From NCBI RefSeq assembly GCF_004015185.1, contig NZ_CP025746.1:1441776-1505775 (forward strand): a stretch of DNA of 64,000 bases, read 5' to 3'. The position numbers and the translations under genes were made by a program. The notes under the pieces are model-generated. The model saw nothing but the letters and a program-made list of their open reading frames with translations. It was not told the origin of the DNA and made no database searches. Each line of letters begins with the position of its first letter. The stretch's first letter is position 1. This DNA is from Clostridium manihotivorum. Its GTDB lineage: Bacteria; Bacillota; Clostridia; Clostridiales; Clostridiaceae. Positions 471 to 30,326 of this stretch are shown in pieces.

Positions 471-567
471 TTCTTCAAAGTGTAAAATATAAATTATTAT
501 TTTACACTAAGTAATTATAAAGAAAGAAAATAAAAGACTAATAATATTTGATTTATGGAGAATTTTA

Positions 568-3078
568 ATGTTAAAAGATAACAAAATATTAAAATATATT
601 GACGATGTTCAAGAAGTTTTAGAAAAAAATCAGTATAGAGTTCAAAGATATAGAAATAATTTAGAGTGGTTTAAGAATAGAAAAAAACAAATTAATAATA
701 GCATTATAAGAGTAGCTATTATGGGTATAACTAGCAGCGGAAAATCTACATTAGTAAATGCAATACTTGGAGAGCAGATTCTACCAGTAGCAATAAAACC
801 AAGTTCTAGTATTATAATTACTTGCTCTAAGGCAAATGATAGACAGGCTACTATATTTTTTGAAGATGGAACTTGCAATATATTAAAAGGTAAAGATTTA
901 AATGAGAAAAATATAGGAAAGTATGCTGATGAGTCTAATAATCCCAATAATAAATTCAAGGTGGTACAAATAGATATTACGACACCAGCGTTTTTATTAG
1001 GAGATAATATACATATAATAGATAGTCCAGGTTTAGATGCATGTAATCTAGATATGCATGAGAGACTTACTATTGAAGTATTATTACCAACAATAGATAT
1101 TTGCATTTTTTTAACTACAGTTAAAGCAAATAGTGATGCAGTAAATGTAGAGAAAATTAAAATTGTAAATAGTAAAGAAAAGCAAATTATTCTTGTGCAA
1201 AATATGATAGATTCCATTGAAGCTAAGATTGGAAAAAATGGAGTAGTTGTAGAAGATAAAAGAGAAATTTTAAAGAAGCATAAAAAAAGGGCTGAAAATC
1301 TTTTGAAAAGTGGAACAGGTACTAATAATAACTTTGAGGTTATTCAATTATCAGCACTTAATGCATTAAATGGAATAATGAGAAATGATAAAGCTTTATA
1401 TAATGAGTCCAATTTAGATAAATTTAATAAAGCAATTAAGTCATGTATAGTAAAGATTGCTCCTAAGCTAGAACAGCAAAGAATTGAAAGTATTTCAGAT
1501 AAAATTCATGAAATAATAAACCAGGAAGAAAAAATAATAGGTAAAAATCAAGCAGGAAATATAAGTAATATAATAGCTGTAAGTGATGATGAATTCAGAG
1601 AGTTTGTAATTGAGTTTGAGGATTCAAAGGAAAATATAAAATTGAAAATAGATGAAATAGATAAAATTACGAGAGATACAATTACGAAGATTAGTGAATC
1701 TAATTCAACTGAGATTGACGGATATGAGAGTATAATTGAAGAGATTAATAAAAAAAATAGACAAATCGAAAATAGCATTATAGATATAGTAAAAGGTAGG
1801 GAAGCAAATAAGCAAGAATTGTACAGAAAGCTTAATTTAGACATGAGACAGGATTATTCTTTGCCAAGTATGGAAAGTAAGAATTTAGAGGTAAAGCATA
1901 AGTATGAAACAAAAACAATATATCATGAAAAAAGTGGCTTATTAAATTGGATAAAAAGAAAAGCTGCTAGTCCTTTTGATGCTGACTGGGGATATGATGT
2001 AGAATACAAAGATGTGAAAGTTATAGATAAAGACTCTACAATAAAAATGGTTGAGAACATATGTAATCAAAATAAAGCTAAATATTTAAGTGTTTTAGAA
2101 CAGTGGAGAACTAACTATTATAGAGCAATAAATTTATTTAAGGAAGAGTTAAATAAACAAAAACAAGAGTATGAGGAAAAGTTAAAGAAAAAAGTTGAAA
2201 CTGATGAGATACAAGATGTAATTAAAAATCTTAAGAACTTGCTTAAAAGTTTAAAAGTAAAAAATAATAATGATGTAGAAGAATCAATAGCAGTTACAAT
2301 AAGTGAAGATAATAATGCGTGCGTTAAAGAAAATAAAGTTATAATTTCAAGGGCTCAGTATGACATGTATATATTAAGTAATCAAATTATTGAAAAAAAT
2401 TATTTAAAAATTGGAGAATATATTAAAGAAAATGGAAATGAAATTCTAAAAGTAAAAAGTAATCAAGTTTTTTGGACATGGGATCTAGAGCCATGTATTG
2501 AGTTCATTTCAAGAGTTTGTGGTATAAGTTTCACTGAAGAAGATTTGACTAATATTAGGAAAAAAGGAGTTCTACTTAAAGAAAGTATTTTTATTGTATA
2601 TGAATTATGTGAAAATAAAGAGCATTTATATATTGAGTTAAGCAATATAAAGAATCAAATATTTAATATGTATATTTTATTTAATGGTATTCAAATAGGA
2701 AATACAGAAAAGCAGATTATTAATAATAATATTCTTCAAGAATTTTCACATAATAATACAATTGTAGTTAATATGGTTATAGATTCTTATAAGGAATTTA
2801 TCAATGCTGATAATATAAGCGAGCTTTTATTAGAAGTTGAAGTATTAAAAAATAAGTTTCTAAAGAAAATGTATAAGGTTAAGGAAGGATATATATTAAT
2901 TAATTCTAAGAACCCAATGTATAATATTGCATTAATAGAATGCCAGGAACAAAAGAAGCTTATTTTAAGTTCTTATAGAACTCTAAAATTAAAATTATTT
3001 AAGAGTTCATTATTAAGGGGGAAAAATGATCAGGCAGTTGTAGAAAAGATACTAAAGCATTATGCAGATAAAAAATAA
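568..3078 (+). CDS. bacterial dynamin-like GTPase (DLP) 1
   Basis: P-loop GITSSGKST near the N-terminus, G3 DSPG and a long helical C-terminal region. It is 836 aa, a typical large-GTPase size. Confidence 0.75.
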   Translation: MLKDNKILKYIDDVQEVLEKNQYRVQRYRNNLEWFKNRKKQINNSIIRVAIMGITSSGKSTLVNAILGEQILPVAIKPSSSIIITCSKANDRQATIFFEDGTCNILKGKDLNEKNIGKYADESNNPNNKFKVVQIDITTPAFLLGDNIHIIDSPGLDACNLDMHERLTIEVLLPTIDICIFLTTVKANSDAVNVEKIKIVNSKEKQIILVQNMIDSIEAKIGKNGVVVEDKREILKKHKKRAENLLKSGTGTNNNFEVIQLSALNALNGIMRNDKALYNESNLDKFNKAIKSCIVKIAPKLEQQRIESISDKIHEIINQEEKIIGKNQAGNISNIIAVSDDEFREFVIEFEDSKENIKLKIDEIDKITRDTITKISESNSTEIDGYESIIEEINKKNRQIENSIIDIVKGREANKQELYRKLNLDMRQDYSLPSMESKNLEVKHKYETKTIYHEKSGLLNWIKRKAASPFDADWGYDVEYKDVKVIDKDSTIKMVENICNQNKAKYLSVLEQWRTNYYRAINLFKEELNKQKQEYEEKLKKKVETDEIQDVIKNLKNLLKSLKVKNNNDVEESIAVTISEDNNACVKENKVIISRAQYDMYILSNQIIEKNYLKIGEYIKENGNEILKVKSNQVFWTWDLEPCIEFISRVCGISFTEEDLTNIRKKGVLLKESIFIVYELCENKEHLYIELSNIKNQIFNMYILFNGIQIGNTEKQIINNNILQEFSHNNTIVVNMVIDSYKEFINADNISELLLEVEVLKNKFLKKMYKVKEGYILINSKNPMYNIALIECQEQKKLILSSYRTLKLKLFKSSLLRGKNDQAVVEKILKHYADKK

Positions 3079-4132
3079 AATTATTTTAAAAGATATAAAT
3101 TTGGGAGGAACTATGAAAGATAAATCAATTGCAATTCAATGTGATGAAATGACACAAGAAGTAATGAAAGACTTACAACAGACGATGGAAAGTTCATTTT
3201 GTAGAACATCAGAAAGTTTAAGTGAGGAAATTGTACAAAAGTTAGAACCAATCAGTAGTTCTTTAAGCAAGCTTAGAAATGATTTTTCTGATAGCAATGA
3301 AGAGAATATTGAAAAGTTAGATGAGTTAATTGAGGAGATAAGTAATATTTCAAAATCAATAAAAGAAAGTGTAGAACAACAGGTTAAAAGTATATTAATA
3401 GAGCAGGCTCAAGCCATAGAAAAAGTGTTAGTTGATAACACACAAGAGATAAAAGATATAATTGAAGAAAAGGATAATGTTGTTTCAGATAAATTAGGTC
3501 AATTTAAGAAGAATATATTAAATGAAATATTAAAGCTTAATGATAAAATCGATGATAAAACAGTTGTCGAAATAATAAACAAGCTTGAATCAAATTTTAA
3601 TGATAAATTTAATAGTATACAAGAAGAATTGCAATCTGGAAAAGAAGAAATAACAAGTTTAAATATGCAATCTGCAGAGGAAATAGTAAAAAAGATAGAA
3701 AATTCAATAGATAGAAATGTTACAACCAATAGAGAAGATATACTTAATGAGATATCAAAGCTAAATCAGAAAATCGATGATAAAACAGTTATCGAAATAA
3801 TAAACAAGCTTGAATCAAACTTTAGTGATAAATTTAATAGTATGCAAGAAGAATTGAAATCTGGAAAGGAAGAAATAACAAGTTTAAATATGCAATCTGC
3901 AGAGGAAATAGTAAAAAAGATAGAAAATTCAATAGATAAAAATGGGGAAACAAACAAGGAAGACATATTGAACGAGATATCGAAGCTAAATCAGAAAATC
4001 GATGATAAAACAGTTATAGAAATTATAAACAAGCTTGAATCAAGCTTGAATGATAGATTTAATAGTATGCAAGAAGAGATAGAGTGGGGCAATAAATCAT
4101 TTTTTGCTAGAATCTTTGGAAGGAAACGATAG
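3062..4132 (+). CDS. coiled-coil protein with tandem ~80-aa repeats
   Basis: Charged, heptad-like sequence. The block ...ISKLNQKIDDKTVIEIINKLESNF.DKFNSMQEELKSGKEEITSLNMQSAEEIVKKIENSID... is repeated about 2.4 times. The gene is embedded between dynamin-like genes and overlaps its neighbour by a few bases. Confidence 0.6.
   Translation: MQIKNKIILKDINLGGTMKDKSIAIQCDEMTQEVMKDLQQTMESSFCRTSESLSEEIVQKLEPISSSLSKLRNDFSDSNEENIEKLDELIEEISNISKSIKESVEQQVKSILIEQAQAIEKVLVDNTQEIKDIIEEKDNVVSDKLGQFKKNILNEILKLNDKIDDKTVVEIINKLESNFNDKFNSIQEELQSGKEEITSLNMQSAEEIVKKIENSIDRNVTTNREDILNEISKLNQKIDDKTVIEIINKLESNFSDKFNSMQEELKSGKEEITSLNMQSAEEIVKKIENSIDKNGETNKEDILNEISKLNQKIDDKTVIEIINKLESSLNDRFNSMQEEIEWGNKSFFARIFGRKR
3505..4080 (+). 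repeat. ~240-bp tandem direct repeat (about 2.4 copies) inside the coiled-coil gene
   Basis: Near-identical DNA blocks start at ~3505, ~3745 and ~3985. Antisense ORFs 3499..3729, 3766..3966 and 3991..4239 in the track echo the same repeat. Confidence 0.8.
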
Positions 4133-4138
4133 AGTAGG

Positions 4139-5899
4139 ATGAGATATATAGATTTAATTAACAATTCAAAGTTTAATGAATTAATTGAGAGGTATTTAAA
4201 CAATGTTATCGATGGAATAGATGCTAAAGAATATTTCAAGCATTTTACAGAAAACTTAAAGAATCAGGAAATAATTGTTCCAGTATTGGGGATACAAGGT
4301 GCAGGAAAAAGCAGTTTTCTTAATTCTATTTTAATGGATGATAATATTTTGCCTACAGATGTTGATGAAACAACTTGTGTTCCAGTAGAAGTGAGATATG
4401 GAACTAATACAAGTAAAGCTGAAATATATTTTCATGAAAAAGAAAAGGAATTAGTAGATGTAAGCACTTTAGAAAAATATGTACATAATGATTACAATCC
4501 AGCTAATGAATTAAGAGTTTCTAAAATAGTCTTATATAATGAAAGCGAAATTTTAAAGAATAATGTTGTGCTTGTTGATTTACCAGGGGTAGGAAGTTTA
4601 ACTCCAGAAAATCAGAAAACTACATTAGATTATGTAGAAAAGCTTGTTACTGCTATATTTATGATTAGAACAGTTCCACCTATAACAAGAACTGAAAAGA
4701 ATTTTATTAACGCATTATGGCCAAAGCTTAGTAATACTATTTTTGTTCAAAATAAATGGAATGATGAAAGTAATGAAGAGGCAGAGGATGCAAAAGAGCA
4801 TAATCAAAGTGTTTTACAAAGCATTAGCAATTCACATAATGATGAAAGAGATATTAATGTTAACATAGTTAATGTGTATGAGGCAATACAAGGAAAATTT
4901 TTAGATAATGATGAGAATTATAAGAATTCTGGAATATTGAATGTAATAAAAGAGATAAAGAATATTTCTACTGACTATAATAAAGATTTGGAAAGTACTT
5001 TAAACATGAGAGTAGAGGGAATATTGAATAATATAACTTCTATAATTGAAGATAACAAAAGAATATGTAATAACCAAAATAATCAAAATGAATTAGAAAA
5101 AGAGAAAAGAATTATTGAAATAAAGCAGATTCTTAAAGAAAATAAAAAAAATATTAGGCAAATAAAAAACTATGTTTATGATGAGATGGACATTATTATC
5201 AGTAGAGTTCTAAAGGATACAAAAGAAAATATTGAAAATACAAGAACAGAACTCAGAAGAATGATAAATACAGGAATAGTTGATGGTGAACTTCTTTCAA
5301 ATATATATAAAGAAGAAGCTGAAAAGGCAATTAATAATATAATGGAAAATCTGCTAATGAACATGGAAGATCTTACTAATACACTAAATGAAAAACTTGG
5401 ATTAATAAGAATAAAAGGTTTTGATGGAAAATATGAAAATAGATCATCTTTTAATAAAAAGGAAGCATTTAAATTTGAAAAGGCTGTAAATCCAATATTA
5501 AGTATTGGAGGTGGAATAGCAGCAGTTTTTATTGTTGGTGGAGGAATACCTGGAATTATTATAGGTGCTGGAATAGGAATTATATGTTCTATATTTGGAG
5601 GACTAATAAATAAAGGTATCAAAAATGTAAGAGTTAAAAGAACAATAGAAGATTTGGAGCCTATAATAACTCAATTGAAAAAAGACTTAGATAAACAAAT
5701 TGTTGATAGTTTAAGAGGAAAAAGGGACGAGATTGAAAGTGAATTAAATAAACTAAAAGATGATTTAGAAAATGAATGTGATAAGGATATTGAAAAAATA
5801 GAAGAACAATACTCAGGTAAATTTGATGAAAAAAATATTGCAGCGCTAGATATGGATTTAGAAGATGTAAAAAGAATGAAGGAGGCTATAAATGAATAA
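4139..5899 (+). CDS. bacterial dynamin-like GTPase 2 with a membrane paddle
   Basis: G1 GIQGAGKSS, G3 DLPGVGS and G4 NKWND (NKxD). A Gly-rich hydrophobic segment GGGIAAVFIVGGGIPGIIIGAGIGIICSIFGG is present. Confidence 0.75.
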   Translation: MRYIDLINNSKFNELIERYLNNVIDGIDAKEYFKHFTENLKNQEIIVPVLGIQGAGKSSFLNSILMDDNILPTDVDETTCVPVEVRYGTNTSKAEIYFHEKEKELVDVSTLEKYVHNDYNPANELRVSKIVLYNESEILKNNVVLVDLPGVGSLTPENQKTTLDYVEKLVTAIFMIRTVPPITRTEKNFINALWPKLSNTIFVQNKWNDESNEEAEDAKEHNQSVLQSISNSHNDERDINVNIVNVYEAIQGKFLDNDENYKNSGILNVIKEIKNISTDYNKDLESTLNMRVEGILNNITSIIEDNKRICNNQNNQNELEKEKRIIEIKQILKENKKNIRQIKNYVYDEMDIIISRVLKDTKENIENTRTELRRMINTGIVDGELLSNIYKEEAEKAINNIMENLLMNMEDLTNTLNEKLGLIRIKGFDGKYENRSSFNKKEAFKFEKAVNPILSIGGGIAAVFIVGGGIPGIIIGAGIGIICSIFGGLINKGIKNVRVKRTIEDLEPIITQLKKDLDKQIVDSLRGKRDEIESELNKLKDDLENECDKDIEKIEEQYSGKFDEKNIAALDMDLEDVKRMKEAINE

Positions 5900-7673
5900 T
5901 CTTAATAGTTGTATTGAAAGACAAAATAAAATTGATTCTGTTGTGAATAAGGTTAATGATAACAGCATTATAGCAAAAAACCTTCTTATTAAAGAGAGGA
6001 TAATGAATCCTGCTCATTATATTGTAATGCTTGGAGAGACAAGCGCTGGAAAAAGTGCGTTAATAAACAGTGCTTTAAATAATAATAAAATTTTAATTGA
6101 AAATGCAAAACCTACTACTGGAGTAATTACAGAAGTTGTGATTTCTAATAAGAGTGAAGATACATATTTAGCGATAAATAAAGATTCAAGCTTAGAGGAA
6201 TTAGATAAAGAAACTTTTGATGAACTTGTAGTAAATCCTGATGATAATTTGCATAGGCTAAGATATATTGGAAAATCTAAAGATAATATGTACGAGGGAA
6301 TGAGACTTTTTGATACACCTGGATATGGATCTTTGATTAGTTATCACGAAGAAGTATTAAAAGAATTCATACCTGAGAGTGATGTTGTTGTTTATGTGGT
6401 ATCCTACAAATCGGGATTAGGTGATGATGATTTTCAATTTTTAAAATATGTTGGAGAGATAATAAACGATAACGTAGAAGTTGTACTAGCCATCAATATG
6501 TGTCCATCTCAATTAAATTCTAGCAATAAAAGAATAAGTGAAATACATGATGCAGTTAATGATTGTATACATAAAGAAGTTAAAGTATTTCTTGTAGAGA
6601 GTAATAAAGAAAAGAACTTAGATACAAAAGAATTATGGGATTATATTTATAGAAGTGTAAATAGTGAAGAGAAGATAGAAGAACTTTGCAAAACACTATA
6701 TAATTATCAAAATTATATTTTAGATGAGTGTAAAATTCGAGTAACTTCACAAATTGCAAGGATAGAATCAGCAGAAGCAGATTTAGAAGAAAAGCTAAAT
6801 TTAGATAGAGAATTTTTAAATAATAGAAAAGAAATTTTAAAGCTAATAGAAGAGACATTTACTAAAATAGCAGATAAATCTTTAACTTTAATAATCAAAT
6901 CATCAGAAAAAATAAAGAAAGAAACATATGGATTCATAGATGATTCAGATAGATGGAGTAAGAAGGAAGAAACTTTTGCATATATGCAAAATTATCATAT
7001 TCCTAAATTAGTAGAAAAAGAAACAGAAAATTTAATGAATTATATTGAAGATGAAATATGTCAATTAGATCAGAAAATTGAAAACATATTAAATACTGCA
7101 ATTAAAAATTTGCAAACTAAAGTAAGCATAGAAATACCAATATATACAGAAGTGATAGAGAGTATTGTTAAAAAGCATGTTGGAGATGGCATTAAAGAAG
7201 GTTTAAAAGAAATGTTTATGAGTGTAGGTGGAAATGGAGGTGTTGGAGCAGGGGTTGCTAATGCGGCAAGTAAAGGACTGAAAAATTTAGGAAACTTATT
7301 TGGTAAGACCTTTAGTAGAGAAACTCATAATAATTTAAAACATTTTTTAAAAGTGATAAAAGCTACATCAATTAAAGGTATATCAGTGTATTTAGCTGTT
7401 TTTACAGAAGGCATATTCTATTTATATGATGCATTAACATGGCAAGGAAAGTTAAAGGATAGAACAGAGGAAGCAATTTCTGGGTGGAAAATTGATATTG
7501 AAAAATCTGTCATTAAAGAGTTGCAGAATTTAAAAGAAGCAAATGAAGATGAAATAAATGATTTATTTGATGATTTTGCAAGAAGCTTTAATAAAGATGA
7601 GGATGAGTTAGATAGTATTGAGATAGATGAATTAATTAAGTTAAAATTAGAAATTTTAGAGCTATATAAATAA
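5892..7673 (+). CDS. bacterial dynamin-like GTPase 3
   Basis: G1 GETSAGKSA, G3 DTPGYGS and a Gly-rich segment GGNGGVGAGVANAASKG. Its start overlaps the upstream stop, indicating an operon. Confidence 0.75.
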   Translation: MNNLNSCIERQNKIDSVVNKVNDNSIIAKNLLIKERIMNPAHYIVMLGETSAGKSALINSALNNNKILIENAKPTTGVITEVVISNKSEDTYLAINKDSSLEELDKETFDELVVNPDDNLHRLRYIGKSKDNMYEGMRLFDTPGYGSLISYHEEVLKEFIPESDVVVYVVSYKSGLGDDDFQFLKYVGEIINDNVEVVLAINMCPSQLNSSNKRISEIHDAVNDCIHKEVKVFLVESNKEKNLDTKELWDYIYRSVNSEEKIEELCKTLYNYQNYILDECKIRVTSQIARIESAEADLEEKLNLDREFLNNRKEILKLIEETFTKIADKSLTLIIKSSEKIKKETYGFIDDSDRWSKKEETFAYMQNYHIPKLVEKETENLMNYIEDEICQLDQKIENILNTAIKNLQTKVSIEIPIYTEVIESIVKKHVGDGIKEGLKEMFMSVGGNGGVGAGVANAASKGLKNLGNLFGKTFSRETHNNLKHFLKVIKATSIKGISVYLAVFTEGIFYLYDALTWQGKLKDRTEEAISGWKIDIEKSVIKELQNLKEANEDEINDLFDDFARSFNKDEDELDSIEIDELIKLKLEILELYK

Positions 7674-7719
7674 TAATGACAAATAGTCTAAAACGTAGAA
7701 GATAAGAATTGGAGATGTA

Positions 7720-8229
7720 GTGATGGACAATACAATTTTACCTGTTGCAAATAGCAGAAGAAGTAGAGTAAGTAATAAAGAAAGCCAGACTATAGTTAAT
7801 GGTGGATACCAAGAAGTATATACAGATATGAATTCTACAAGAGTTCATTCTGAGTCAAACAATAATGGCAATAAAGAAGTATTAAATAAATTTTTAACTA
7901 ATGAAAAAATAATAAGTTCGGTAGCTGATAATATGAGTACAGTTTTAGATATAGCAAAAGAAATAGTTAGAATTAAAGGTAGCAGGATTGAAACTCAAAA
8001 TACATTAGATATTATGGATAAAGAGATAGATAAATTACAAGCAGCTACAGATGATTATGTAAGACGTGTAAGTGAGGATATAAAGACTTTGGCAAATAGA
8101 GCTGAAGTAACTTTAGAACTAATGAATAATCTTACAAATTCATTAAAAGAAAATAACATGAGTGATGATATAAAGGCACTTTTAATTAATGCAGTTTCAA
8201 GTTCAATTGATAAGGTGTGGGAAAAGTGA
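7720..8229 (+). CDS. hypothetical protein
   Basis: ORF in operon position after the DLP genes; no recognised motif. Confidence 0.4.
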   Translation: MMDNTILPVANSRRSRVSNKESQTIVNGGYQEVYTDMNSTRVHSESNNNGNKEVLNKFLTNEKIISSVADNMSTVLDIAKEIVRIKGSRIETQNTLDIMDKEIDKLQAATDDYVRRVSEDIKTLANRAEVTLELMNNLTNSLKENNMSDDIKALLINAVSSSIDKVWEK

Positions 8230-8549
8230 TAGATAAAAAGGATATTATTGATATAGCAATTGCACTAGTTAAAGATGAGGAATATAAAAGGGCAAATAGG
8301 CTTATTATTGATAAGATGAATCAAGTTCTAGAAAAGAAAACTGAAAGTGACAGGGAGAAAATAAGAGAACTTAATAAAGAAATCTTTATGCTAAACAGAA
8401 CTATAGATAAATATATATTTAAATTAAAAGAAATAAAAGGTAAAGTATCAAATGATTTATCCTTAAAGAGATTAGAAGATTGTTTAGTGGAGATTGAAAA
8501 TGAACGCAAAAGAATAATAATAGAGAAGAGAAATATATCATTTAGATAA
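8217..8549 (+). CDS. hypothetical coiled-coil protein
   Basis: Overlaps the preceding ORF, suggesting translational coupling. Charged, helical composition. Confidence 0.4.
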   Translation: MGKVIDKKDIIDIAIALVKDEEYKRANRLIIDKMNQVLEKKTESDREKIRELNKEIFMLNRTIDKYIFKLKEIKGKVSNDLSLKRLEDCLVEIENERKRIIIEKRNISFR

Positions 8550-8786
8550 AGTAATTATTAATATAGAAAGTTATTCTAGTAATAGAAATGCAAATTATCT
8601 TGAATTTAGATAATAATTATTTATGAAACTTGATAATAAACTAATATTTCATTGGTCTATTAATTAAGCCTATAAATTGTCAAAGATTAAGTAGGCTAGA
8701 GAAAATTCTACTCAATGGTCTATACAAAGAAGAGTTAAAAACACTAAAAGATATTTTAAATAGTATGGAATTGTAAAATTGAAATG

Positions 8787-8888: not shown

Positions 8889-9488
8889 TTAATTTGTGAA
8901 GTTACAATACTTGTCTACTTTAAATGCAAGCTTTAGTTTACTAAGAATACTTGTTTTCATATCAACAACCTTATAATAAGGAATCATTTTAAAATCGGAA
9001 TACTTCTTCATGGAATAGCCTTTAAAGAAAATATATAGTACAAGTTCCTTTTCTTTTTCATTTAGAGTATTAATGATAGAGCTTATCTGAGACTTTACTT
9101 GATTTTGGCAAATAATATCTTCAACATAATTCATATCGCAACAATCTATGTTCTCCAAGTTAGTATCTAACATAACTACCTTAGAACCATCAGTTAACTG
9201 TCTTCTTACAGATTTTCTTATAAGACAATTAACTGAATTCTTCATAGCATTAGTAGCATAAGCTACAAATCTATGTTTTTCTGGTTCATAAAGCTTTATA
9301 CAATTAAATAAAGTTTTATAGCATTCATTTCTTATATCATCAAATTCATATCCACTTACAAAAGATTTCTTACACAGATTTATTATAAAAGGGTTAAATT
9401 CTGAAACTAATGTTTCTTTAGCTTCTTCATTATCTTCCTTGCATAGCAGTACTAGATTTTCAATATGTTTATAATCCATAAATATCAC
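8889..9488 (-). CDS. sigma-70 family RNA polymerase sigma factor (small, TcdR/UviA- or ECF-like)
   Basis: 199 aa with the region 2/region 4 pattern of small sigma factors (...YATNAMKNSVNCLIRK..., C-terminal HTH-like segment). Divergent from a cell-wall hydrolase gene. Confidence 0.55.
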   Translation of the reverse strand: MIFMDYKHIENLVLLCKEDNEEAKETLVSEFNPFIINLCKKSFVSGYEFDDIRNECYKTLFNCIKLYEPEKHRFVAYATNAMKNSVNCLIRKSVRRQLTDGSKVVMLDTNLENIDCCDMNYVEDIICQNQVKSQISSIINTLNEKEKELVLYIFFKGYSMKKYSDFKMIPYYKVVDMKTSILSKLKLAFKVDKYCNFTN

Positions 9489-9546
9489 CTCTCAACTAAA
9501 ATATATGCCAGTCGGCATATATCTAAGGAAAAGGAGGTAGATACTC

Positions 9547-10248
9547 ATGAAAATATCAAAACTAGCTATAGATATAGGCCACAATGTTCAATTTGACGGG
9601 GGAGCAGTAGGTATAAGATCAGAAAATGAGCTTAATTATGAGGTAGGAACAAAGCTTATAGAAAAATGCAGAGCTGAAGGGCTAAATGTAATTAACTGCA
9701 CTCCTAAAAGTGCCACTAGCTTATATGATTCTTTAAATCAAAGAGTAAAAGCGGCTAATAATAACAATGCTGATTTCTTTATTTCCATTCATCATAATTT
9801 ATGTACTGGAGGCCATGGATCGGAGATATTATGTATTCCAGGAGGAAGAGCTGAAGAAGCTGCTAAAATAATTCTTACTGAGATCGCAAAGTTAGGTTTT
9901 ACGAATAGAGGAGTAAAAGCAAGAAATGATTTGTTTGTACTAAAAAATACTAATATGTCTGCGATACTTATAGAATGTGCTTTTTGTGATAGTCCAGTCG
10001 ATATGAATAATTATAATCCAGAGAGTATGGCAGAGGCAATATTTAAAGGGATATGCAAAGCATTTGAGCTAAATGTATCAGAAGATAATCGGTCTACTGA
10101 GCAAGCTAATTATTATATAGTAGTAAGAGGCGACACATTATATTCAATAGCTAAAAGGTATGGAACTACAGTTGAAAAAATAGCTTCACTGAATAATATT
10201 GCCAATGCTGATATTATCTATGAGGGACAGAAAATTAAGGTTAAGTAA
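9547..10248 (+). CDS. N-acetylmuramoyl-L-alanine amidase (Amidase_3) with C-terminal LysM domain
   Basis: DIGHN...ISIHHN...E motifs of the zinc amidase_3 family. The C-terminal [30 protein letters not shown]...GQKIKV is a LysM domain. Confidence 0.8.
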
Positions 10249-10588: not shown

Positions 10589-11503
10589 TTAAGGTATATA
10601 AAATAATTTATAACAGTTGATATCCGAATCTAGCTCAATTCTAATTAAAGACTTAAAATCATTTTTTAAACGTTTTAAGATTATTTCATCTATATACTCT
10701 TGGGTTATCTCACTTGCAATAAACTTTCTTTTATTATTTATACAACTTACAATTTCACTACCAGTTCCTGCGAATGGGATATAAACTATTTGATCTTCTT
10801 TACTGCTAGCATCCAAAATTCTATCACACAGTTTGAGAGCTTTTACTGTGGGGTGCTTTTTACCATCTGACATGTAAAATCTTTGTTTTGAAGATTGAGA
10901 GGCTTCTGTAATATCTGACCAGATTTCATTACATAAAAGTTCATCTTCAAAATTCATATCTATCCAAACATCTGTACAACGTTTCTTATCATTCTTACGT
11001 GGTTTACCGTTCGCTCCTAAATCTTTACGATTAGTAGATTCATTTGTGTACTGTGGCTTAAAATAATAAGATGTTTCACATTTCCATGGGACCATAAAGA
11101 CTAGTTCTTCTCTACATGGAGGAAAACCTTTTTTAGTTCCGAATACATGAGTGTTTTTTTGAGTTATCCAGTTAATTACTTTGAAATATTGATTAGATTC
11201 AATCCAATCAGCAAGCTTTGGAAGGGAATATCCATTGCTATAACCGATTGCGCCCCATAGATAAAAGCTGCCAGTATTTTTTAAAATATCTCTAAATTGT
11301 AATATGCGTGTTTTGCTCCAAGCAATATATTCTTCTACATCTTCCCATTCGTAATCCCATTCAGCATCTTTTTTATTGGCTATTTTATAATAGGGTGGAT
11401 CTGCAATAATCAAATCTATTGAATGATTATTAATTAATTTACTAGTATAAAGGCAATCTTGGTTAAAAATATATCCTATCTCATTATTATTAAATAGGTC
11501 CAT
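10589..11503 (-). CDS. DNA methyltransferase, beta class (N6-adenine or N4-cytosine), type II/IV-associated
   Basis: Motif IV IIADPPY precedes motif I FAGTGSE, the beta-class order. Size is ~300 aa. Confidence 0.85.
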   Translation of the reverse strand: MDLFNNNEIGYIFNQDCLYTSKLINNHSIDLIIADPPYYKIANKKDAEWDYEWEDVEEYIAWSKTRILQFRDILKNTGSFYLWGAIGYSNGYSLPKLADWIESNQYFKVINWITQKNTHVFGTKKGFPPCREELVFMVPWKCETSYYFKPQYTNESTNRKDLGANGKPRKNDKKRCTDVWIDMNFEDELLCNEIWSDITEASQSSKQRFYMSDGKKHPTVKALKLCDRILDASSKEDQIVYIPFAGTGSEIVSCINNKRKFIASEITQEYIDEIILKRLKNDFKSLIRIELDSDINCYKLFYIP

Positions 11504-11716: not shown

Positions 11717-13051
11717 ATGGCCAATAGGAAGAACAGAACAAATATTATGTATAAAAATCTTATAATGAAATCATTTATACAAAACAAAAGAAGAGAGCCA
11801 CTATACATAGTTATTAAATTATTAAGAAATATCAATGAAGAAGCTAAACAAGCTTTAAACTTAAATGAAGATGAGGAAAATATATTATTAAATGTTGAAG
11901 AAGAAGTTAAATTTCAGGTATATTTCGATGAGAAAGATGATGAGATATATGCAAGTATAGATGAAAATACAAATTTTATAAAGTTGGTGAGATTTGTTAA
12001 TAACAAATTTGATGAAATGAAGGAAAAAAAGTTGATTACTGGAGATTCGCAAAAAAATTGCTTAATAGGTACAATCAAATTTTTACGAGAAAAGTATGGA
12101 AGTGATTTAAGCGGTTTTCAGAGTAGAGTAAATTTTATGCTTGGTGATATTGTTTCATTTGAATTAACAAATAATCGAATCTTAAGTTCTAAAAAAATTT
12201 CAGGTACATTAACTACATATATATATAATGATATATACATGTATAAAGAAGACTATAAAAGATGTAAATTGGGAAACGTAGATCAAATATTTGAAGATCA
12301 AGATATATTACCTTGTGAAAATGTAGTAAATAGGTTTTTAGATATACTTCTTTTTGATAAAAGGATGCAATTGATTAGTGGTGAAAGGTTGAATTTTTTA
12401 TTAAAAGGTGTTCCTGGAACGGGGAAGTCGACCGCTGTTGATAACTATCTGCATAAAATTGGAGTTGTAAATACCGAAAATATTTGCAGAATAAATGTTC
12501 ATTCAGGTACTAGCAATAGTGATTTGATGCAAGGCATAGGAATAAGTTTAAAAGGAGTAGATATTTTATACACTGAAAAACAAGGTATGGTTCTTAGTTT
12601 TATTTTAAGTGCTATAAAAAATCCAGAACAAAAGTATGCATTAATATTAGAAGAAATACAGGAGAATAGTCTAAATGAAATTTTAGGAGATTTGATATAT
12701 TTGATCGAAGAGAGTAAGAGAGTGGATAATAGTTTTATTATCAAAATTAAAGAGACATTAGGTGATATAGAAACTTATGATCCGTTTAAAATTATTGATA
12801 CTTTATTAGAAAAATATCCATGGTTTTATTATATAAATATGCCTAAGTTAGTTGAAGATAATGATGATAGAAAATTTAATAAACTGATATTACCTAATAA
12901 TTTATTTGTTTTTTGTACTACTAATTACAGTGAAGAAAAAAATATATTAGAGGACAATTTATTTAGAAGATTTGAAGTTATTGATATTTTTCCAGATGAA
13001 GAACAAATAAAAGATAAATATATATATTTCAATAAAACTTCTACATTTTAA
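11717..13051 (+). CDS. McrB-like AAA+ GTPase restriction subunit (LlaJI R1-like); 3' end probably truncated or altered by IS insertion
   Basis: Walker A LLKGVPGTGKST. The ILEEIQENSLNEILGDLIYLIEESKR region resembles the McrB motif IIDEINRxNxSxxFGELxxLIE. The ORF ends inside or at the IS630 element. Confidence 0.65.
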   Translation: MANRKNRTNIMYKNLIMKSFIQNKRREPLYIVIKLLRNINEEAKQALNLNEDEENILLNVEEEVKFQVYFDEKDDEIYASIDENTNFIKLVRFVNNKFDEMKEKKLITGDSQKNCLIGTIKFLREKYGSDLSGFQSRVNFMLGDIVSFELTNNRILSSKKISGTLTTYIYNDIYMYKEDYKRCKLGNVDQIFEDQDILPCENVVNRFLDILLFDKRMQLISGERLNFLLKGVPGTGKSTAVDNYLHKIGVVNTENICRINVHSGTSNSDLMQGIGISLKGVDILYTEKQGMVLSFILSAIKNPEQKYALILEEIQENSLNEILGDLIYLIEESKRVDNSFIIKIKETLGDIETYDPFKIIDTLLEKYPWFYYINMPKLVEDNDDRKFNKLILPNNLFVFCTTNYSEEKNILEDNLFRRFEVIDIFPDEEQIKDKYIYFNKTSTF

Positions 13052-14215
13052 TGCATAGCCTGTCTATGATTTCTGTAGGGGTTTTATTTATATGTGTAAT
13101 AAACCTTTGCACTGCTTCGCTTACCCTAGATAAGGTAGGATAGAATGCATTATTAATTATTCTTGACTTAAGCCACCCCCATAACCCCTCTATCAAATTA
13201 AGTTCTGGACTATATGGTGGTAAAAATACTAACTCTAATCTATTTTTATTCTCATATAAAAAGGGCTCAAGTAGTTTTGCATGATGTATTCTTGCATTAT
13301 CTAGTATCATTACGATTTTACCCGTAGGGTATTGTTCTAGTATACACTTTAAGAATCTTTCAAATACAACTGCATCATACCTCTCATGCTCTTCACAATA
13401 TACTTTTCCTGTACCATAATCCAATATCCCTATTAATTTTACTCCAGCATTTTTACCGTAGGTTGGGATTTTACGACGCTGACCTTTCTTAAACCAAGTT
13501 TTCTGTATAGCTTGATAGTCTCTTATCATGGATTCATCTTCGAACAGAAGATGCGCTAGCTCCCCATTAATTAGTTTTTTTAGGTCTTCAAAAGTTACCT
13601 TAAATTCTTCTTGCTTTTCTTTATCAGCTTTTTTTAGTACGTAGGTTGGTCTTGTATAGCTTAGATTTAATCTATGCAAAATTTCATGGATTCCCCTGTG
13701 ACTCATGGTTATACAAAATGTTTTAATCACCCACTGCCTAATTATTTCAATAGTCCAGTTTTTTCTAGATTCAAACCCGACTTCGTCAGGAGTTTTATTT
13801 GTTACAATTTCAACTATCATGGCTTCTTGGTCTTTACTCAATTTTCTGGGAGCTCCTGTACTATGCTTCATTACTAAGCCTAGCAATCCTTTAGCTTTGT
13901 AGTTTTTAATGTAGTCTCCGACTGTATGTTGATCTAAAGAAACCATTTTAGCAATATCAACATTTGAAGCACCTTCCAAGTGCCTTAATATTACTAGGTA
14001 TCTTTTATACATTCGTACATTTTTAGTTTCCTTCATAATTGACTTTAATTCATTAATTTTTTCATTTAATTCTAATGTATTATTTGAATAAATATTATCC
14101 ATATAAATCACAACCTTTTAAATATTATTGTAATTATTTTGCACTTATTTGCGATTTATATATTTGGTAATATTCTACTATGAATTTTTATTATTGAAAT
14201 TTATATATATAAAAT
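13035..14215 (-). mobile_element. IS630-family insertion sequence (boundaries approximate)
   Basis: Contains a single DDE transposase gene with the IS630 signature LPPYSPELNLIEGLWGW. It lies between the two parts of a McrB-like reading frame. Terminal inverted repeats could not be defined confidently by eye. Confidence 0.5.
13041..14111 (-). CDS. IS630-family DDE transposase
   Basis: 356 aa with an HTH N-terminus and the DDE domain motif ...LDNARIHH...LPPYSPELNLIE... Confidence 0.9.
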   Translation of the reverse strand: MIYMDNIYSNNTLELNEKINELKSIMKETKNVRMYKRYLVILRHLEGASNVDIAKMVSLDQHTVGDYIKNYKAKGLLGLVMKHSTGAPRKLSKDQEAMIVEIVTNKTPDEVGFESRKNWTIEIIRQWVIKTFCITMSHRGIHEILHRLNLSYTRPTYVLKKADKEKQEEFKVTFEDLKKLINGELAHLLFEDESMIRDYQAIQKTWFKKGQRRKIPTYGKNAGVKLIGILDYGTGKVYCEEHERYDAVVFERFLKCILEQYPTGKIVMILDNARIHHAKLLEPFLYENKNRLELVFLPPYSPELNLIEGLWGWLKSRIINNAFYPTLSRVSEAVQRFITHINKTPTEIIDRLCIKM

Positions 14216-16777: not shown

Positions 16778-17674
16778 ATGGCAATGGTAATTAACTTTCC
16801 TAAAAATTTAAGAACAGATAAAAAAGGGATTGAATTTTTAGCTTTTTTGTGGGGAGTAAGTAAGAAAATCTATAAAGGCAGAATTATATGGAATTTGAAG
16901 TATACAAAAAAAATTGAAACCAATCTATTGTCTTTTTTAGGCTTAATTGCAAGAAGGATGGATAGTAGAAATAATATAATTGAAATGGTTATAAGGGATA
17001 GTAATGGAATGACAATAAAGGTATCTGATAATATATTGACTCGTTTATTTAAGAAGTATTCTTCTAATAAAAATAAATTATTAGAATATAATTTTTTAGA
17101 TGAAAACAATTCAAAAGAAGAAATAGAGATACTTTTACTTAAAAATTTAGAAGAGCTAAAATTACTATACTATTCAGACATTAAGATTTTATTAAGTGAA
17201 TTTATTGCCAACATATTTATGCATGCAACTGATAAAGAGGGGTCAATGTCTGGATATATGACAGATAAAGATGATATATTAATAAGTGTATGTAATATTG
17301 GGAGAACAATTAAACAAAATATAGAAAGTGTAAATGAATACAAATTTTTAAATGATAAAGATGCAATTTTGTGGGCTTTAAAAAAGAACAATTCCACAAG
17401 AAATAAAGAAGAAAGTGGAGGTTTAGGATTATATCTTCTTAGAAAATATATTAATAAGATTGATGCAGAAGCATATATTATTTCTGGAAAGTTTTTTATT
17501 AGCCTTTCTGGTGATAACTGCTTTGATGAAAATGATGTTAATAAATTTTATTTCAAGGAAGAATTTGAAATGAAAAGTTTTTTTCCCGGTAATTTGATAA
17601 CTTTAAAGTTTAAGAATGAGAGGAATTATGTGTTTAATAATAAAGTGTATTTACCACGAATAGATTTGTTGTGA
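16778..17674 (+). CDS. GHKL-type ATPase (HATPase_c; SpoIIAB/RsbW-like serine-kinase fold) with unknown N-terminal domain
   Basis: N-box EFIANIFMHA and G2-box ESGGLGLYLLRKYI resemble anti-sigma-factor kinases. It is the first gene of a tight three-gene operon. Confidence 0.55.
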   Translation: MAMVINFPKNLRTDKKGIEFLAFLWGVSKKIYKGRIIWNLKYTKKIETNLLSFLGLIARRMDSRNNIIEMVIRDSNGMTIKVSDNILTRLFKKYSSNKNKLLEYNFLDENNSKEEIEILLLKNLEELKLLYYSDIKILLSEFIANIFMHATDKEGSMSGYMTDKDDILISVCNIGRTIKQNIESVNEYKFLNDKDAILWALKKNNSTRNKEESGGLGLYLLRKYINKIDAEAYIISGKFFISLSGDNCFDENDVNKFYFKEEFEMKSFFPGNLITLKFKNERNYVFNNKVYLPRIDLL

Positions 17675-17691
17675 TTTGGAGGATTTAGCTA

Positions 17692-18957
17692 GTGGATTGT
17701 ATTATCGATTTTTTAAGTGATATTAAACAAAAAGACTTGAGGAGATTAGCACAGAATCAAAGTGAATGTTATGAAGATGCAATAGAGCTATATAAGGAAC
17801 TGTTTATATCGAATTTTTCACAAATTAAAGATGCTTGTAGTGATGAGAAATGTGATATAAAGAGTAAATGTAATGAATTAAGAGAAATAATTTTAGGCAT
17901 TGAAAATGCTGAAATTATAGATTTCTTTGATAAAATGAAATTAGTATATATAAATTGGATCGATGCAAAAATTAAAGATTCCTTGGAAGTATTTACAGAT
18001 ATTATGAATCAATATGAATTATGGTGTTTCTATGATACTGATATAAAAAAAGAAATATTTTTTAAAGGAAGAATAGAAAAAAATATATTAACAAGATGGG
18101 AAATGTTTCATATACCATTTAATAAAAGGTATTTAATTAAAAATCAGAGATATAGCTTAACTGGACAGCCAATAATATATTTAGGTAAATCGATTGTTGA
18201 TATAATTCATGAATTAGATATTAGTGATGAAAACATTGGTGACTTGAAGATATCTTCAATAAGAATTAAAGAAGATTTGAAAGTTTACGATTTAAGAAAT
18301 AATATATATGATTTACTTAATAAGACAGAATTCCTAGAAGTAATAGGTGGAGAAGGTATAGAAAAAAATTATAAACAAACGTTCTTTAAGATACTATTAG
18401 CATCGATATGTAGTTTCGAAAGAAAAAAAGAACATAAAGATTATACTTTTTGTGAGGAGTATGTAATACCACAAATTTTAGCTCAGACATTGAAAAATAA
18501 GGAGTATGATGGAATTATATATTTTTCAACTAAAAAATTTGAAGGTGTAAGTTTTGAAAATACTAAGGAGAATATTTCATTAACTAATAAAACTAAGTAT
18601 AAAGAAAATGTAGCTCTTTTTACTAATTTTAATAAGGATCATGTATATGATGAAGTTCTTTATAGTAAATTGGATATTAGTTCTCCAATAGATTTAACAA
18701 AATCACAGGATTTTAATATCAATCATCTTGATGAGACATGCAAGAAAATTGAATTTACAAAAAATCAAAAGGAAATTAATGATAGTCAAGTAATAGTAAC
18801 TATTTTTAAAAGGGAATTTGAAGGTATAAAAATTAATGATTCAAAATATATTGATAAAGATATGGGAAAAATGCATATATATCATTTATATTGTATTCTA
18901 AATAAAATTCTATGTAAAAGTAGTGAGGTGGTAATTAATGAAAGAAATAATAGTTAG
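17692..18957 (+). CDS. RES-domain protein (putative NAD+-targeting toxin/effector) with extra N- and C-terminal regions
   Basis: NQRYSLTGQPIIYLGKSIVDIIHEL matches the RES consensus R(F/Y)n..G.p.lYla.s...al.E. DGIIYFSTK...NVALF matches the G.l.PS...N.vlF block about 130 aa downstream. GTG start with RBS tggagga. Confidence 0.55.
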   Translation: MDCIIDFLSDIKQKDLRRLAQNQSECYEDAIELYKELFISNFSQIKDACSDEKCDIKSKCNELREIILGIENAEIIDFFDKMKLVYINWIDAKIKDSLEVFTDIMNQYELWCFYDTDIKKEIFFKGRIEKNILTRWEMFHIPFNKRYLIKNQRYSLTGQPIIYLGKSIVDIIHELDISDENIGDLKISSIRIKEDLKVYDLRNNIYDLLNKTEFLEVIGGEGIEKNYKQTFFKILLASICSFERKKEHKDYTFCEEYVIPQILAQTLKNKEYDGIIYFSTKKFEGVSFENTKENISLTNKTKYKENVALFTNFNKDHVYDEVLYSKLDISSPIDLTKSQDFNINHLDETCKKIEFTKNQKEINDSQVIVTIFKREFEGIKINDSKYIDKDMGKMHIYHLYCILNKILCKSSEVVINERNNS

Positions 18958-19249
18958 AGATATACTAAAATCTAATGTGGCTATTAGTAAAGATGACGGT
19001 GATATAGTATTTAATCAAATTAAGACTGAGATAGAGAATAAAAATAGTATTCTTATTGATTTTAAGAATATAGATTTAATAAATACAGCTTTTCTAAATA
19101 ATGCTATAGGCAAGATTTATTTTATCCCAATTGAGAAAAGAATGGATACAACTGTAAGAATAGTCAATTTCCCATTAGAAGTAATGGAGTTGCTTGAAGA
19201 AGTTATTAATACTGCTAAAGAGAAAGCTTCAATAACTGAAGATGCTTAA
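18938..19249 (+). CDS. STAS-like (SpoIIAA / anti-sigma antagonist fold, DUF4325-like) small protein
   Basis: ~100 aa, overlapping the upstream gene. Pattern ...ILIDFKNIDLINTAFLNNAIGKI... is typical of STAS/anti-anti-sigma proteins. Adjacent to a GHKL ATPase. Confidence 0.5.
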   Translation: MKEIIVRDILKSNVAISKDDGDIVFNQIKTEIENKNSILIDFKNIDLINTAFLNNAIGKIYFIPIEKRMDTTVRIVNFPLEVMELLEEVINTAKEKASITEDA

Positions 19250-20820: not shown

Positions 20821-20849
20821 GGTTGAGGTTTTGGAAGGAGGATTTCACA

Positions 20850-21854
20850 ATGGATATGAAAACAACATTTTGTGAACACTGTAGAAAAGATGTATTATAT
20901 ACAGAAAAAAATGAGCTAATGAATGCAGAGTTAAAAGGTGAGATTTATAACTATTATGGAAAATTAGCAGTTTGTAACGAATGTAATAACGAGATCTTTG
21001 TAAATGACATTAATGATTATAATTTGGAGCAGCTTTATAATGAATTTAGAAAGCAGAATAACATTATTTCTTTAACTAATATAATGGAGATACCTGAAAA
21101 GTACAACATTGGTAAAAGACCTTTATCATTACTTTTAGGTTGGGGAGAGCAGACCTTTAGCCGTTATTATGATGGAGATATGCCTACACAGCAGTACTCA
21201 GCAATTTTGCAGAGAATTTATGATGAGCCTAGTTTTTATCTTTCCATTTTGGAAAGTAATAAAGAGAAACTAAAATCAAAATCAGCTTATGAGAAGAGTA
21301 AATTGGCTACAGATAAACTTTTAGAAACTCAGAATGTTTCAAATGGTGAGAAGATAGATGTTGTTGGAAATTATCTTGTAAGCAAATGTGAAGATATTAC
21401 TCCATTAGCATTGCAAAAACTTTTGTATTATGTTCAGGGATTTTATTATGCTTTTACAAATCAATTTATATTTGAAGAAAACTGCGAAGCCTGGATTCAT
21501 GGACCAGTATACAGGGATATATATTTCAAATATAAAGAATATAAATTTGATCCAATGGGAATTTCTGAAGTTATAGATAATTTTAACTTAACAGTATCTG
21601 AGAAAGCTATTATTGATAGTGTGATTAAAAATTTAAGTTGCTATAGTGGAAAGGTTTTGGAAGCATTTACCCATGCTGAAACACCATGGTTAGAAACTCG
21701 TGGAGATTTGCCTATAGCTGCATCTTCAGATAGACAAATTGAAAAAAGGCTAATTGGAGATTATTTTTCAGCAGTTAAAGAGAAGACTAATATGTTAAAC
21801 CCATCTGATATCGGTGTTTATAGCAAAAAAATGTTTGAACAAATTTCTATGTAG
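20850..21854 (+). CDS. Panacea/DUF4065 (SocA-like) antitoxin-domain protein with N-terminal zinc ribbon
   Basis: C-terminal ...LQKLLYYVQGFYYAF...WIHGPVY... is the conserved core of DUF4065. N-terminal CEHC...CNEC zinc ribbon. RBS ggaaggagg before ATG 20850. Confidence 0.6.
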   Translation: MDMKTTFCEHCRKDVLYTEKNELMNAELKGEIYNYYGKLAVCNECNNEIFVNDINDYNLEQLYNEFRKQNNIISLTNIMEIPEKYNIGKRPLSLLLGWGEQTFSRYYDGDMPTQQYSAILQRIYDEPSFYLSILESNKEKLKSKSAYEKSKLATDKLLETQNVSNGEKIDVVGNYLVSKCEDITPLALQKLLYYVQGFYYAFTNQFIFEENCEAWIHGPVYRDIYFKYKEYKFDPMGISEVIDNFNLTVSEKAIIDSVIKNLSCYSGKVLEAFTHAETPWLETRGDLPIAASSDRQIEKRLIGDYFSAVKEKTNMLNPSDIGVYSKKMFEQISM

Positions 21855-28581: not shown

Positions 28582-29044
28582 ATGAAGTATTATACAATTG
28601 GTCAATTCTCAAAATTAATGGGAAAAAGTATTCAAACTTTAAGATTGTGGGATAATGAAGGAAAGTTAAAACCACATCATATAACAGAAGGTGGACACCG
28701 TTATTATTCTGAACAACAAATTAATCAAGTTTTGCAAGTGCCACTTGTTAAGAGAACTAAAAAAGTAATTGGATATTGTAGAGTATCAAGTAATAAACAA
28801 AAAGATGATTTAGCAAGACAGGTTGCTGAGATTTGGGTTTGAAATAATAGAAAATCTATGTAATAAGTATGGGACTGACATCGAAATCATAGATAACACT
28901 GAAAAAACAGAAGAACAGGAATTAGTTGAGGATTTAATTCAAATTGTTACAGTTTTTAGTTGTAGGTTGCAAGGCAAAAGAGCCAATAAAGCAAAGAAAA
29001 TGATTAAGGAGCTGTTAGAGAATGATACTGGCGAAGAAAGTTAG
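28582..29044 (+). pseudogene. tnpA: IS607-type tnpA (MerR-HTH + serine recombinase) with internal deletion and frameshift
   Basis: MerR-like HTH MKYYTIGQFSKLMGKSIQTLRLW, catalytic-Ser motif IGYCRVSSNKQKDDLARQ, then a frame break. The RFGFEII...ELVEDLIQ tail resumes in another frame, with ~50 aa of recombinase core missing. Confidence 0.7.
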
Positions 29045-30167: not shown

Positions 30168-30326
30168 TATCACTAACAAGATAGTGCTGATATGTACTGT
30201 GCGTTACGCAGGATTTTAAGCCTTTGGAGCAACATATCAAACTGGAGTAGTCTTATGACAAAACAGGTTGCGTTGAATAAGGAATAAATCTCTAAACATT
30301 AGATTTTAGTAGATTTTATGTAACGG
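30168..30326 (+). ncRNA. predicted omega (right-end) RNA scaffold of TnpB
   Basis: ~160-nt segment between the tnpB stop and the element end, conserved with only a few substitutions in copy B (51490..51648). Established TnpB biology places the guide scaffold here. Confidence 0.5.

Follow-up and report, generated by a model that had tools for sequence, protein, structure and literature searches.

Three dynamin-like GTPases in a six-gene cassette of Clostridium manihotivorum: gene content, relatives and a possible role in phage defence

The stretch of the Clostridium manihotivorum genome considered here (the window: 64,000 nt of contig NZ_CP025746.1, about 28% GC) carries near its 5' end a run of six open reading frames (ORFs), all on the + strand and lying between positions 568 and 8549, three of which encode dynamin-like proteins (DLPs). 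In order, they are DLP1 (568..3078, 836 aa), an acidic helical, coiled-coil protein (CC; 3113..4132, 339 aa), DLP2 (4139..5899, 586 aa), DLP3 (5892..7673, 593 aa, overlapping the DLP2 stop by 8 nt) and two small proteins, S1 (7723..8229, 168 aa) and S2 (8226..8549, 107 aa; helical and basic). Three of these starts were revised from ribosome-binding sites and homologue alignments. The listed ORF for CC, 3062-4132, begins too far 5', and translation most likely starts at ATG 3113, since this is preceded by a GGGAGG ribosome-binding site and all homologues begin MKDKS. The most likely start of S1 (listed as 7720-8229) is ATG 7723, and that of S2 (listed as 8217-8549) is GTG 8226, which overlaps the S1 stop as GTGA.

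All three GTPases are separate and complete, as a previous sequence-only reading of this DNA had proposed from their lengths and motifs, and the Dynamin_N profile search it called for places each of them above the Pfam gathering cut-off of 27 bits: 59.9 bits for DLP1, 81.3 for DLP2 and 53.4 for DLP3, which also matches MMR_HSR1 at 38.2 bits. The motifs it quoted are present. DLP1 has a P-loop, GITSSGKST (G53-T61), and a DxxG motif, DSPG (D152-G155); DLP2 has GIQGAGKSS (G51-S59), DLPGVGS and QNKWND; DLP3 has GETSAGKS (G48-S55) and DTPGYGS, together with an atypical G4, NMCP, that lacks the Asp. The P-loop and DxxG motif are invariant among the relatives of each protein (67-79 sequences each), as are G1-G4 among those of DLP2. 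Two features expected of the dynamin superfamily are found, a large G domain with G1 and G3 in all three proteins and a helical neck/trunk following it; the three are mutually alignable only in the G domain.

The AlphaFold2 model of DLP1 (predicted local distance difference test score, pLDDT, 77.7) runs from a G domain (residues ~45-270) into a helical bundle, the neck/trunk (283-421 and 488-561), with a beta-hairpin tip (444-486) bearing conserved Lys/Arg and Trp/Tyr/Phe residues, and then through a disordered linker (565-592) to a confidently modelled C-terminal alpha/beta domain; it resembles the structures of mitofusin, IniA, Cj-DLP and BDLP. A hydrophobic, transmembrane-like stretch at residues 167-187 is buried inside the G-domain core. 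The C-terminal domain (residues 595-836; 2350..3075) has a G-domain-like alpha/beta fold with WTWDLEPC at the expected Walker A position, and because this fold comes without a P-loop, the domain is, on the model, a pseudo-GTPase. When 1.84 billion representative proteins were searched it matched only 26 clusters, and it was found in no family but that of the triple-dynamin cassette. The combination of three DLPs with a repeat protein had been described as unusual, and the small number of matching clusters, like the departure from the usual pair or fusion, bears this out.

DLP2 is of the BDLP/mitofusin type. Its family profile, compared with the PDB, retrieves Nostoc BDLP (2j68, E 3.7e-18, residues 38-343) and also mitofusins, and the DLP3 profile matches Fzo1, mitofusins and IniA weakly (E 2e-5 to 4e-3). 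A Gly-rich, membrane-paddle-like segment had been noticed in the second GTPase, and it holds up well: residues 448-492 (5480..5614) form the sole strongly hydrophobic, transmembrane-like stretch outside the G domains of the cassette proteins, with Kyte-Doolittle values of up to 2.3 over a 19-residue window, and glycines G459, G469, G472, G476 and G478 are invariant across the family. From its hydropathy, this hairpin is a predicted membrane anchor or paddle, and together with the basic/aromatic tip of DLP1 it is taken as a predicted indicator of membrane binding.

The protein between DLP1 and DLP2 had been described as a 356-aa coiled-coil protein built from 240-bp tandem repeats. The coiled coil and the tandem repeat stand, and the numbers are corrected to 339 aa and, by Tandem Repeats Finder, an in-frame period of 225 bp (75 aa) in 2.5 copies (3506..4077; score 918, 89% matches). 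In close relatives the length of CC changes by whole 75-aa repeats (189, 263/264 and 339 aa). Every complete cassette has a gene at this position, coding for 105-430 aa over 70 loci, and those of other lineages have independent in-frame repeats of 237, 132/66/33 or 102 bp; periods of 237, 132/66/33, 102 and 33 bp are distributed among the CC genes of loci L055, L076, L005, L007, L011, L012, L037 and L040. Several of these periods are multiples of 33 bp, or 11 residues. A periodicity of 11 residues has been recognised in amphipathic helices that bind lipid surfaces.

Another recurrent feature of CC is its aromatic-basic C-terminal tail, EWGNKSFFARIFGRKR (4082..4129), which is conserved in all Clostridium copies and has equivalents in most of the 70 loci (LPFYKKWF, TPFWKKW, IPFWRFK, IWQRLFGGRR). 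Its residue pattern and its conservation suggest that it may be a membrane-targeting amphipathic helix, presumably resembling the membrane-targeting helix of MinD; a crude Kyte-Doolittle hydrophobic-moment calculation did not single it out. Assignments of CC to ZorA, LmuB, DndD, apolipoprotein, PRESAN or tape-measure proteins were considered and set aside as coiled-coil or compositional similarity in low-complexity helical regions, the Pfam matches among them being below or barely at the cut-offs.

The two small ORFs that close the operon had been noted as coupled. They are coupled, and they are also conserved parts of the unit, which is truly one of six genes. The N-terminus of S1 is of low complexity, and its C-terminal part is helical and conserved; the protein is conserved in five loci of the window type, has positional, weak sequence homologues in Paenibacillus, Tumebacillus and Lysinibacillus, and has no significant match in Pfam, PADLOC, PHROG or NCBIfam. 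A hidden Markov model (HMM) of S1 detects it 3' of DLP3 in 37 loci, and the gap between S1 and S2 is 20 nt or less in 27 of 27. In the same three genera, the distant counterparts of CC, S1 and S2 are colinear with those of the window at 17-28% identity, with common end motifs.

Close relatives found by protein search are 83-88% identical, and their contigs hold all six genes. DLP1 homologues at about 27% identity, reached by searching exhaustively with the C-terminal domain and then with a profile, are found in Paenibacillus, Tumebacillus, Lysinibacillus, Niallia, Neobacillus, Planococcus, Priestia and Anaeromusa. In the contexts of the first three, a DLP1 of 838-856 aa is followed by a 187-355 aa protein, a DLP2 of 583-608 aa and a DLP3 of 597-613 aa, with proteins of about 140-162 aa and then 106-110 aa 3' of DLP3. 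The order DLP1-CC-DLP2-DLP3-S1-S2 is shared by Clostridium (L022-L026), the megaplasmid of Paenibacillus sp. 37 (L027/L110), Tumebacillus (L028), Lysinibacillus (L029) and dozens of metagenome contigs; a metagenome scan added 80 further loci, in which HMMs of the six components give the same order throughout. The genes are tightly packed or overlapping (median gaps -4 to 5 nt), and the GC content of hosts or contigs ranges from 25 to 62%. In NCBI, the Paenibacillus copy is labelled "dynamin family protein" three times and "hypothetical protein" for the other three genes, and a "dynamin family protein" is 100% identical to DLP1 of the window; looking up DLP2, and a P-type ATPase encoded in the window, by exact protein sequence gave no match.

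A scan in which each species was represented by one genome turned up 21 Clostridium loci with DLP2 at 49-60% identity, all arranged DLP1-CC-DLP2-DLP3; none of the 21 has S1 or S2, and they make up a four-gene sister lineage. Outside this survey, among loci L022-L109 with sequence after DLP3, there are 37 six-gene and 12 four-gene forms. The family is rare, patchy in distribution and not part of a core genome. One of 72,556 plasmids carries a cassette, a tblastn search of 50,697 phage records gave no cassette match, and a scan of IMG/VR by two peptide patterns found no confirmed relative. None of the six proteins has a PHROG match beyond coiled-coil noise, and a megablast search of the region against phage and plasmid collections returned no near-identical DNA. 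The possibility that the cassette of the window is part of a bona fide phage was dropped for want of relatives in PHROG, phage genomes and IMG/VR.

To judge by DNA similarity, positions 492 to 8650 are a discrete, horizontally mobile module of about 8.1 kb. In blastn comparisons with L022, L023 and L024, nucleotide identity of 88-91% begins abruptly at 492 and stops at 8562 (L022) or 8650 (L023), with none beyond; mobility is deduced from these abrupt ends in four other contexts. The 5' edge and upstream untranslated region (480..567, + strand) include a palindrome, GTGTAAAATA...TATTTTACAC, at 480-508, and the 3' edge lies within 8550..8650. Consensus scans of the upstream region for promoters, and a terminator scan, gave hits at chance level with no promoter singled out, and the 64 kb contain no tRNA gene as a candidate attachment site. 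An upstream ORF at 156-470, outside the module, was considered as SeqA_C or DRT and rejected, its matches being sub-threshold.

The settings in which the module is found differ. In the window it is followed by genes for a sigma factor, an endolysin-like amidase and a methyltransferase; in C. beijerinckii (L022) it sits in a phage-like backbone with a DnaC-like gene, MazE and Bro/ANT, followed by GGDEF and WYL genes; L023 and L024 share this phage-like backbone (YqaJ, RecT, replication organiser), and in them Hachiman HamA/HamB lie just upstream; L025 has a GmrSD-type gene immediately upstream; and L026 is a short contig. In a neighbour-joining tree these copies, which come from C. manihotivorum, C. 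beijerinckii and metagenome contigs, fall together in one tight clade borne by a long branch; the four-gene copies cluster by synteny class. In the C. beijerinckii copy (L022 9468-11977, GCA_013295565) DLP1 is split by an apparent frameshift into ORFs of 181 and 658 aa, and the other five genes are intact.

Six-gene relatives further afield are repeatedly found among defence genes. On the Paenibacillus megaplasmid the cassette is bordered at one end by dpdJ/DpdD and a UvrD helicase, and at the other by an abortive-infection protein and a KAP NTPase. The Lysinibacillus copy is preceded or followed by a helicase, a reverse transcriptase and two GmrSD genes at one end, and by a PLD protein with a large helicase at the opposite end. 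Pfam and PADLOC searches of 144 non-redundant ORFs from six-gene flanks recovered WYL (7-8), WCX (4) and GmrSD_N (5), as well as type I S and M subunits, BrxL, PglZ, SspE-like proteins and Cas3-like helicases. In about 10 loci a WYL regulator lies within ~1 kb of the cassette, mostly on the same strand; it is often WYL+WCX, and may be upstream or downstream (L022, L034, L039, L047, L060, L066, L072, L073, L090 and L100). Two of these loci, L047 and L073, have a WYL regulator on both sides of the cassette. The 567 bp upstream of the window copy contain none.

The mobility of the six-gene form, the genes around it, the WYL regulators beside it and the examples set by Eleos and DynA (discussed below) lead us to propose that it has a role in defence against phages or other mobile elements: on balance it is probable, if only slightly so, that the cassette encodes a membrane-bound multi-dynamin machine used for phage defence. 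Several observations weigh against this. The four-gene Clostridium copies are flanked by housekeeping genes with no defence neighbours: depending on the clade, TrxB-like/AsnC genes and mraZ-rsmH, pabA-pabB-pabC and alr, RNase J and DegT, or DAHP synthase with spoIIIAA or an NlpC/P60 hydrolase. This lineage falls into five or more synteny groups that track its phylogeny, a pattern that fits general membrane maintenance. In Tumebacillus the six-gene copy is surrounded by cox, opuA and transporter genes. The cassette encodes no canonical effector such as a nuclease, TIR or protease, and PADLOC gives weak matches (38-54 bits) to the LeoA, LeoB and LeoBC families of an already named system. The contrast in the flanks, 346 PADLOC families for the 144 six-gene ORFs against nine generic ones for 88 four-gene Clostridium ORFs, is one of aggregated family counts over our own ORF calls, with the four-gene lineage as its single internal control.

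The immediate surroundings of the window copy belong on the same side, as they include few recognised defence genes, and the defence argument cannot rest on them. The sequence-only reading had placed the cluster in a region with restriction/modification genes; what the window offers is one N6/N4 DNA methyltransferase (10589-11503) and an AAA_5 ATPase gene disrupted by an insertion sequence (IS), and between 11.7 and 32.5 kb PADLOC detects no further known defence gene. The suggested association with defence is thus weak for these neighbours, and it is borne out by the six-gene relatives (Hachiman, GmrSD, Dpd, Abi/KAP, BREX and type I restriction-modification). Conversely, the outcome that reading had named as fatal to itself, a housekeeping operon with no link to defence loci, is partly realised, in the four-gene lineage of 21 Clostridium species. 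Co-localisation with known defence systems is in this way a property of the six-gene form, and not of the four-gene Clostridium lineage.

The main alternative, then, is that the cassette has no dedicated role against phages and is a general machine for membrane-stress repair or maintenance, comparable with DynA when pore-formers attack or IniBAC when the cell wall is stressed, and that its defence neighbours reflect shared cargo hotspots. The occurrence of the four-gene lineage in 21 Clostridium species beside rsmH/mraZ, pabABC-alr, RNase J, DAHP synthase or spoIIIAA speaks for it, as do a four-gene tree that follows the synteny groups, suggesting vertical inheritance, the merely generic PADLOC families in the four-gene flanks, the metabolic context in Tumebacillus and the lack of any effector domain besides the membrane-active DLPs. 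It does not readily account for a six-gene form that moves as a discrete module among unrelated contexts, recurs next to Hachiman, GmrSD, Dpd, Abi/KAP, BREX, type I restriction-modification and WYL genes, and belongs to a rare and patchy family. As an explanation of the cassette as a whole it is rather unlikely, though it has to be taken seriously; for the four-gene chromosomal lineage, a general membrane-repair role may well be correct.

The PADLOC matches raise a second alternative, that this is a plain member of Eleos (LeoA + LeoBC) with extra neighbour genes. Eleos, formerly called "Dynamins" and including LeoABC of enterotoxigenic E. coli (ETEC), is a two-DLP operon that protects against jumbo phages, with both P-loops required (bioRxiv 10.1101/2022.05.11.491447). 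The likeness is real: both are operons of several dynamin-like GTPases in defence islands, one Eleos partner has a hydrophobic membrane element, and PADLOC matches DLP3 to LeoA (E 4.7e-15, 53.7 bits, a weak match), DLP2 to LeoBC (E 7e-11) and LeoB (E 2e-10), and DLP1 to LeoBC (E 7.5e-11). These scores, however, are far under those that a family model of 560-600 positions gives to its members, and they cover mostly helical regions; the DLP2 and DLP3 profiles, which retrieve BDLP1, mitofusins, Fzo1 and IniA from the PDB, do not retrieve LeoA (4AUR) even at E<=1. Eleos consists of two DLPs, with the first gene sometimes split, and has no other conserved genes; the cassette has three DLPs, all complete, which have diverged deeply and share homology in the G domain alone, and adds three conserved non-DLP genes, namely a variable CC with an aromatic-basic tail and two small proteins, as well as a family-specific pseudo-GTPase domain. 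Simple membership is improbable. By gene content and profile searches the cassette is probably related to Eleos and distinct from it, and in view of the weak Leo matches, automatic annotators may nevertheless label it as such.

Other bacterial dynamins are further removed. B. subtilis DynA is reported to limit phage spread (PMC8844932) and is implicated in both this and membrane repair (PMC8844932, PMC12998192). Like the cassette, it provides a multi-headed DLP system at the cytoplasmic membrane of a Bacillota host; unlike it, DynA is a housekeeping single polypeptide of two fused DLPs (~1190 aa), and the NCBIfam DynA equivalog NF052648, which has a cut-off of 1600 bits, gives 36.7 and 22.9, well outside DynA membership. 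The sequence-only reading had asked for a placement relative to the DynA halves and LeoA/B/C; by gene content, equivalog scores and the structures retrieved, the cassette falls outside both LeoABC and DynA. The Campylobacter jejuni DLP1/DLP2 heterotetramer (5OWV) has two DLPs where the cassette has three; it assembles through an N-terminal domain that is not G-like, and it lacks coiled-coil or small partners. Mycobacterial IniBAC is a stress-linked operon in which two DLPs, IniA and IniC, accompany a non-DLP partner, and IniA is matched here in both sequence and structure; it differs in having two DLPs and another partner, IniB. IniBAC belongs to a different phylum, and it is not known to have a mobile or defence context. 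In sequence and structure, DLP2 and DLP1 are best matched by the class of Nostoc BDLP1 and the mitofusins (with a G domain, a helical neck/trunk and a membrane paddle or hairpin), a likeness of fold and class only, with no common operon architecture. The literature searched, which covers DynA, Eleos, LeoABC, Cj-DLP, SynDLP and IniA, yielded no description of a three-DLP operon.

A third alternative is developmental membrane remodelling in Bacillota, in sporulation, engulfment or cytokinesis, by comparison with DynA/DynB of Streptomyces. Most of the named hosts form endospores (Clostridium, Paenibacillus, Lysinibacillus, Tumebacillus, Niallia, Neobacillus, Priestia), one four-gene copy adjoins spoIIIAA, and another precedes the dcw cluster. 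Against such a role are the sparse and patchy distribution of the cassette inside these same genera, its presence on a megaplasmid and a phage-like element, contigs of up to 62% GC, and flanking positions that differ between clades; it must be considered very improbable.

Returning to the proposal of a membrane-bound machine used against phages, the cassette most likely encodes a hetero-oligomeric dynamin assembly. The comparisons above show which genes it has and in what order, that their motifs are intact, how they fold, that they move together and that they lie in defence islands; from these we infer complex formation, membrane binding, a trigger and the anti-phage role along the following lines. 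DLP2 would be anchored in the cytoplasmic membrane by its Gly-rich hydrophobic hairpin, with DLP1 and DLP3 docking onto it through contacts of the G domains and stalks, and the P-loop-less, G-like domain of DLP1 might supply a fourth, inactive G-interface. CC, held at the membrane by its aromatic-basic tail, could serve as a scaffold or spacer with a length set by whole repeats, and S1 and S2 may be small helical accessory subunits peculiar to the island-borne form. By analogy with DynA and Eleos, phage infection would lead to GTP-driven assembly, the membrane would be tethered, sealed or remodelled, and phage production or spread would be reduced.

A more specific and tentative version, possible but held with less than even confidence, is that the cassette represents a new anti-phage family, a "triple-dynamin" machine that senses a membrane event induced by phage and answers it by GTP-driven remodelling, and that the four-gene Clostridium form is its domesticated or ancestral membrane-repair counterpart. 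Here all three DLPs would be active, the pseudo-GTPase domain would be a built-in interface, CC a length-variable, membrane-tethered "ruler", and S1 and S2 adaptors or sensors; candidate triggers include genome entry, holin lesions, early vesicles and replication compartments.

Dynamin-based immunity is known from Mx proteins in animals and from Eleos and DynA in bacteria, and its mechanism is not understood. The cassette may offer a form of it that is easier to dissect, with three non-redundant GTPases, a possible built-in inactive, G-like dimerisation partner, natural variation in the length of CC by whole repeats, and the presence of S1 and S2 to separate island-borne from chromosomal copies. 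Assuming that phage defence is the correct reading, current catalogues miss this defence family or mislabel it as Eleos. Its mobile six-gene and resident four-gene forms would also make a natural pair for asking a broader question: how does a membrane-repair machine become an immune system?

Some further features of the window are of separate interest. Directly 3' of the cassette, at 8889-10248, is a divergent pair encoding a sigma-70-like factor (phrog_351) and an Amidase_3/LysM protein of endolysin-like appearance (phrog_435, E 4.5e-54). The AAA_5 ATPase gene (11717-13051), beside the methyltransferase gene, has no PADLOC match, and its 3' end is overlapped by an IS630-type DDE_3 transposase gene (13041-14111, minus strand). 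A coupled trio at 16778-19249 encodes a 298-aa protein with a weak, sub-threshold HATPase_c-like match, a 421-aa protein of unknown family and a 103-aa DUF4325/STAS-like protein; no member has a PADLOC match, and the trio may be an uncharacterised cargo system of the island. At 20823-21854, one protein joins an MqsA-like zinc-ribbon antitoxin region to a SocA/Panacea domain.

Two matches to the RAGATH-18 RNA (RF03064, 68.6 bits each) were found, at 30221-30284, 54 nt downstream of a TnpB/IS605-OrfB gene (29022-30167), and at 51543-51606, after ORFs at 50345-51489; their positions after these ORFs suggest that the RNA is tied to IS605-type elements in the window. Between the two, at 31413-33316, a 248-aa protein of unknown family is coupled to an SPFH/Band-7 protein whose C-terminus is a double zinc ribbon. 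Further downstream, at 55650-59909, two genes show translational coupling: one encodes a DnaK-like Hsp70 paralogue of 566 aa that scores far under the DnaK cut-offs, the other a TPR-rich protein of 852 aa with an N-terminus that weakly matches DnaJ-like proteins.

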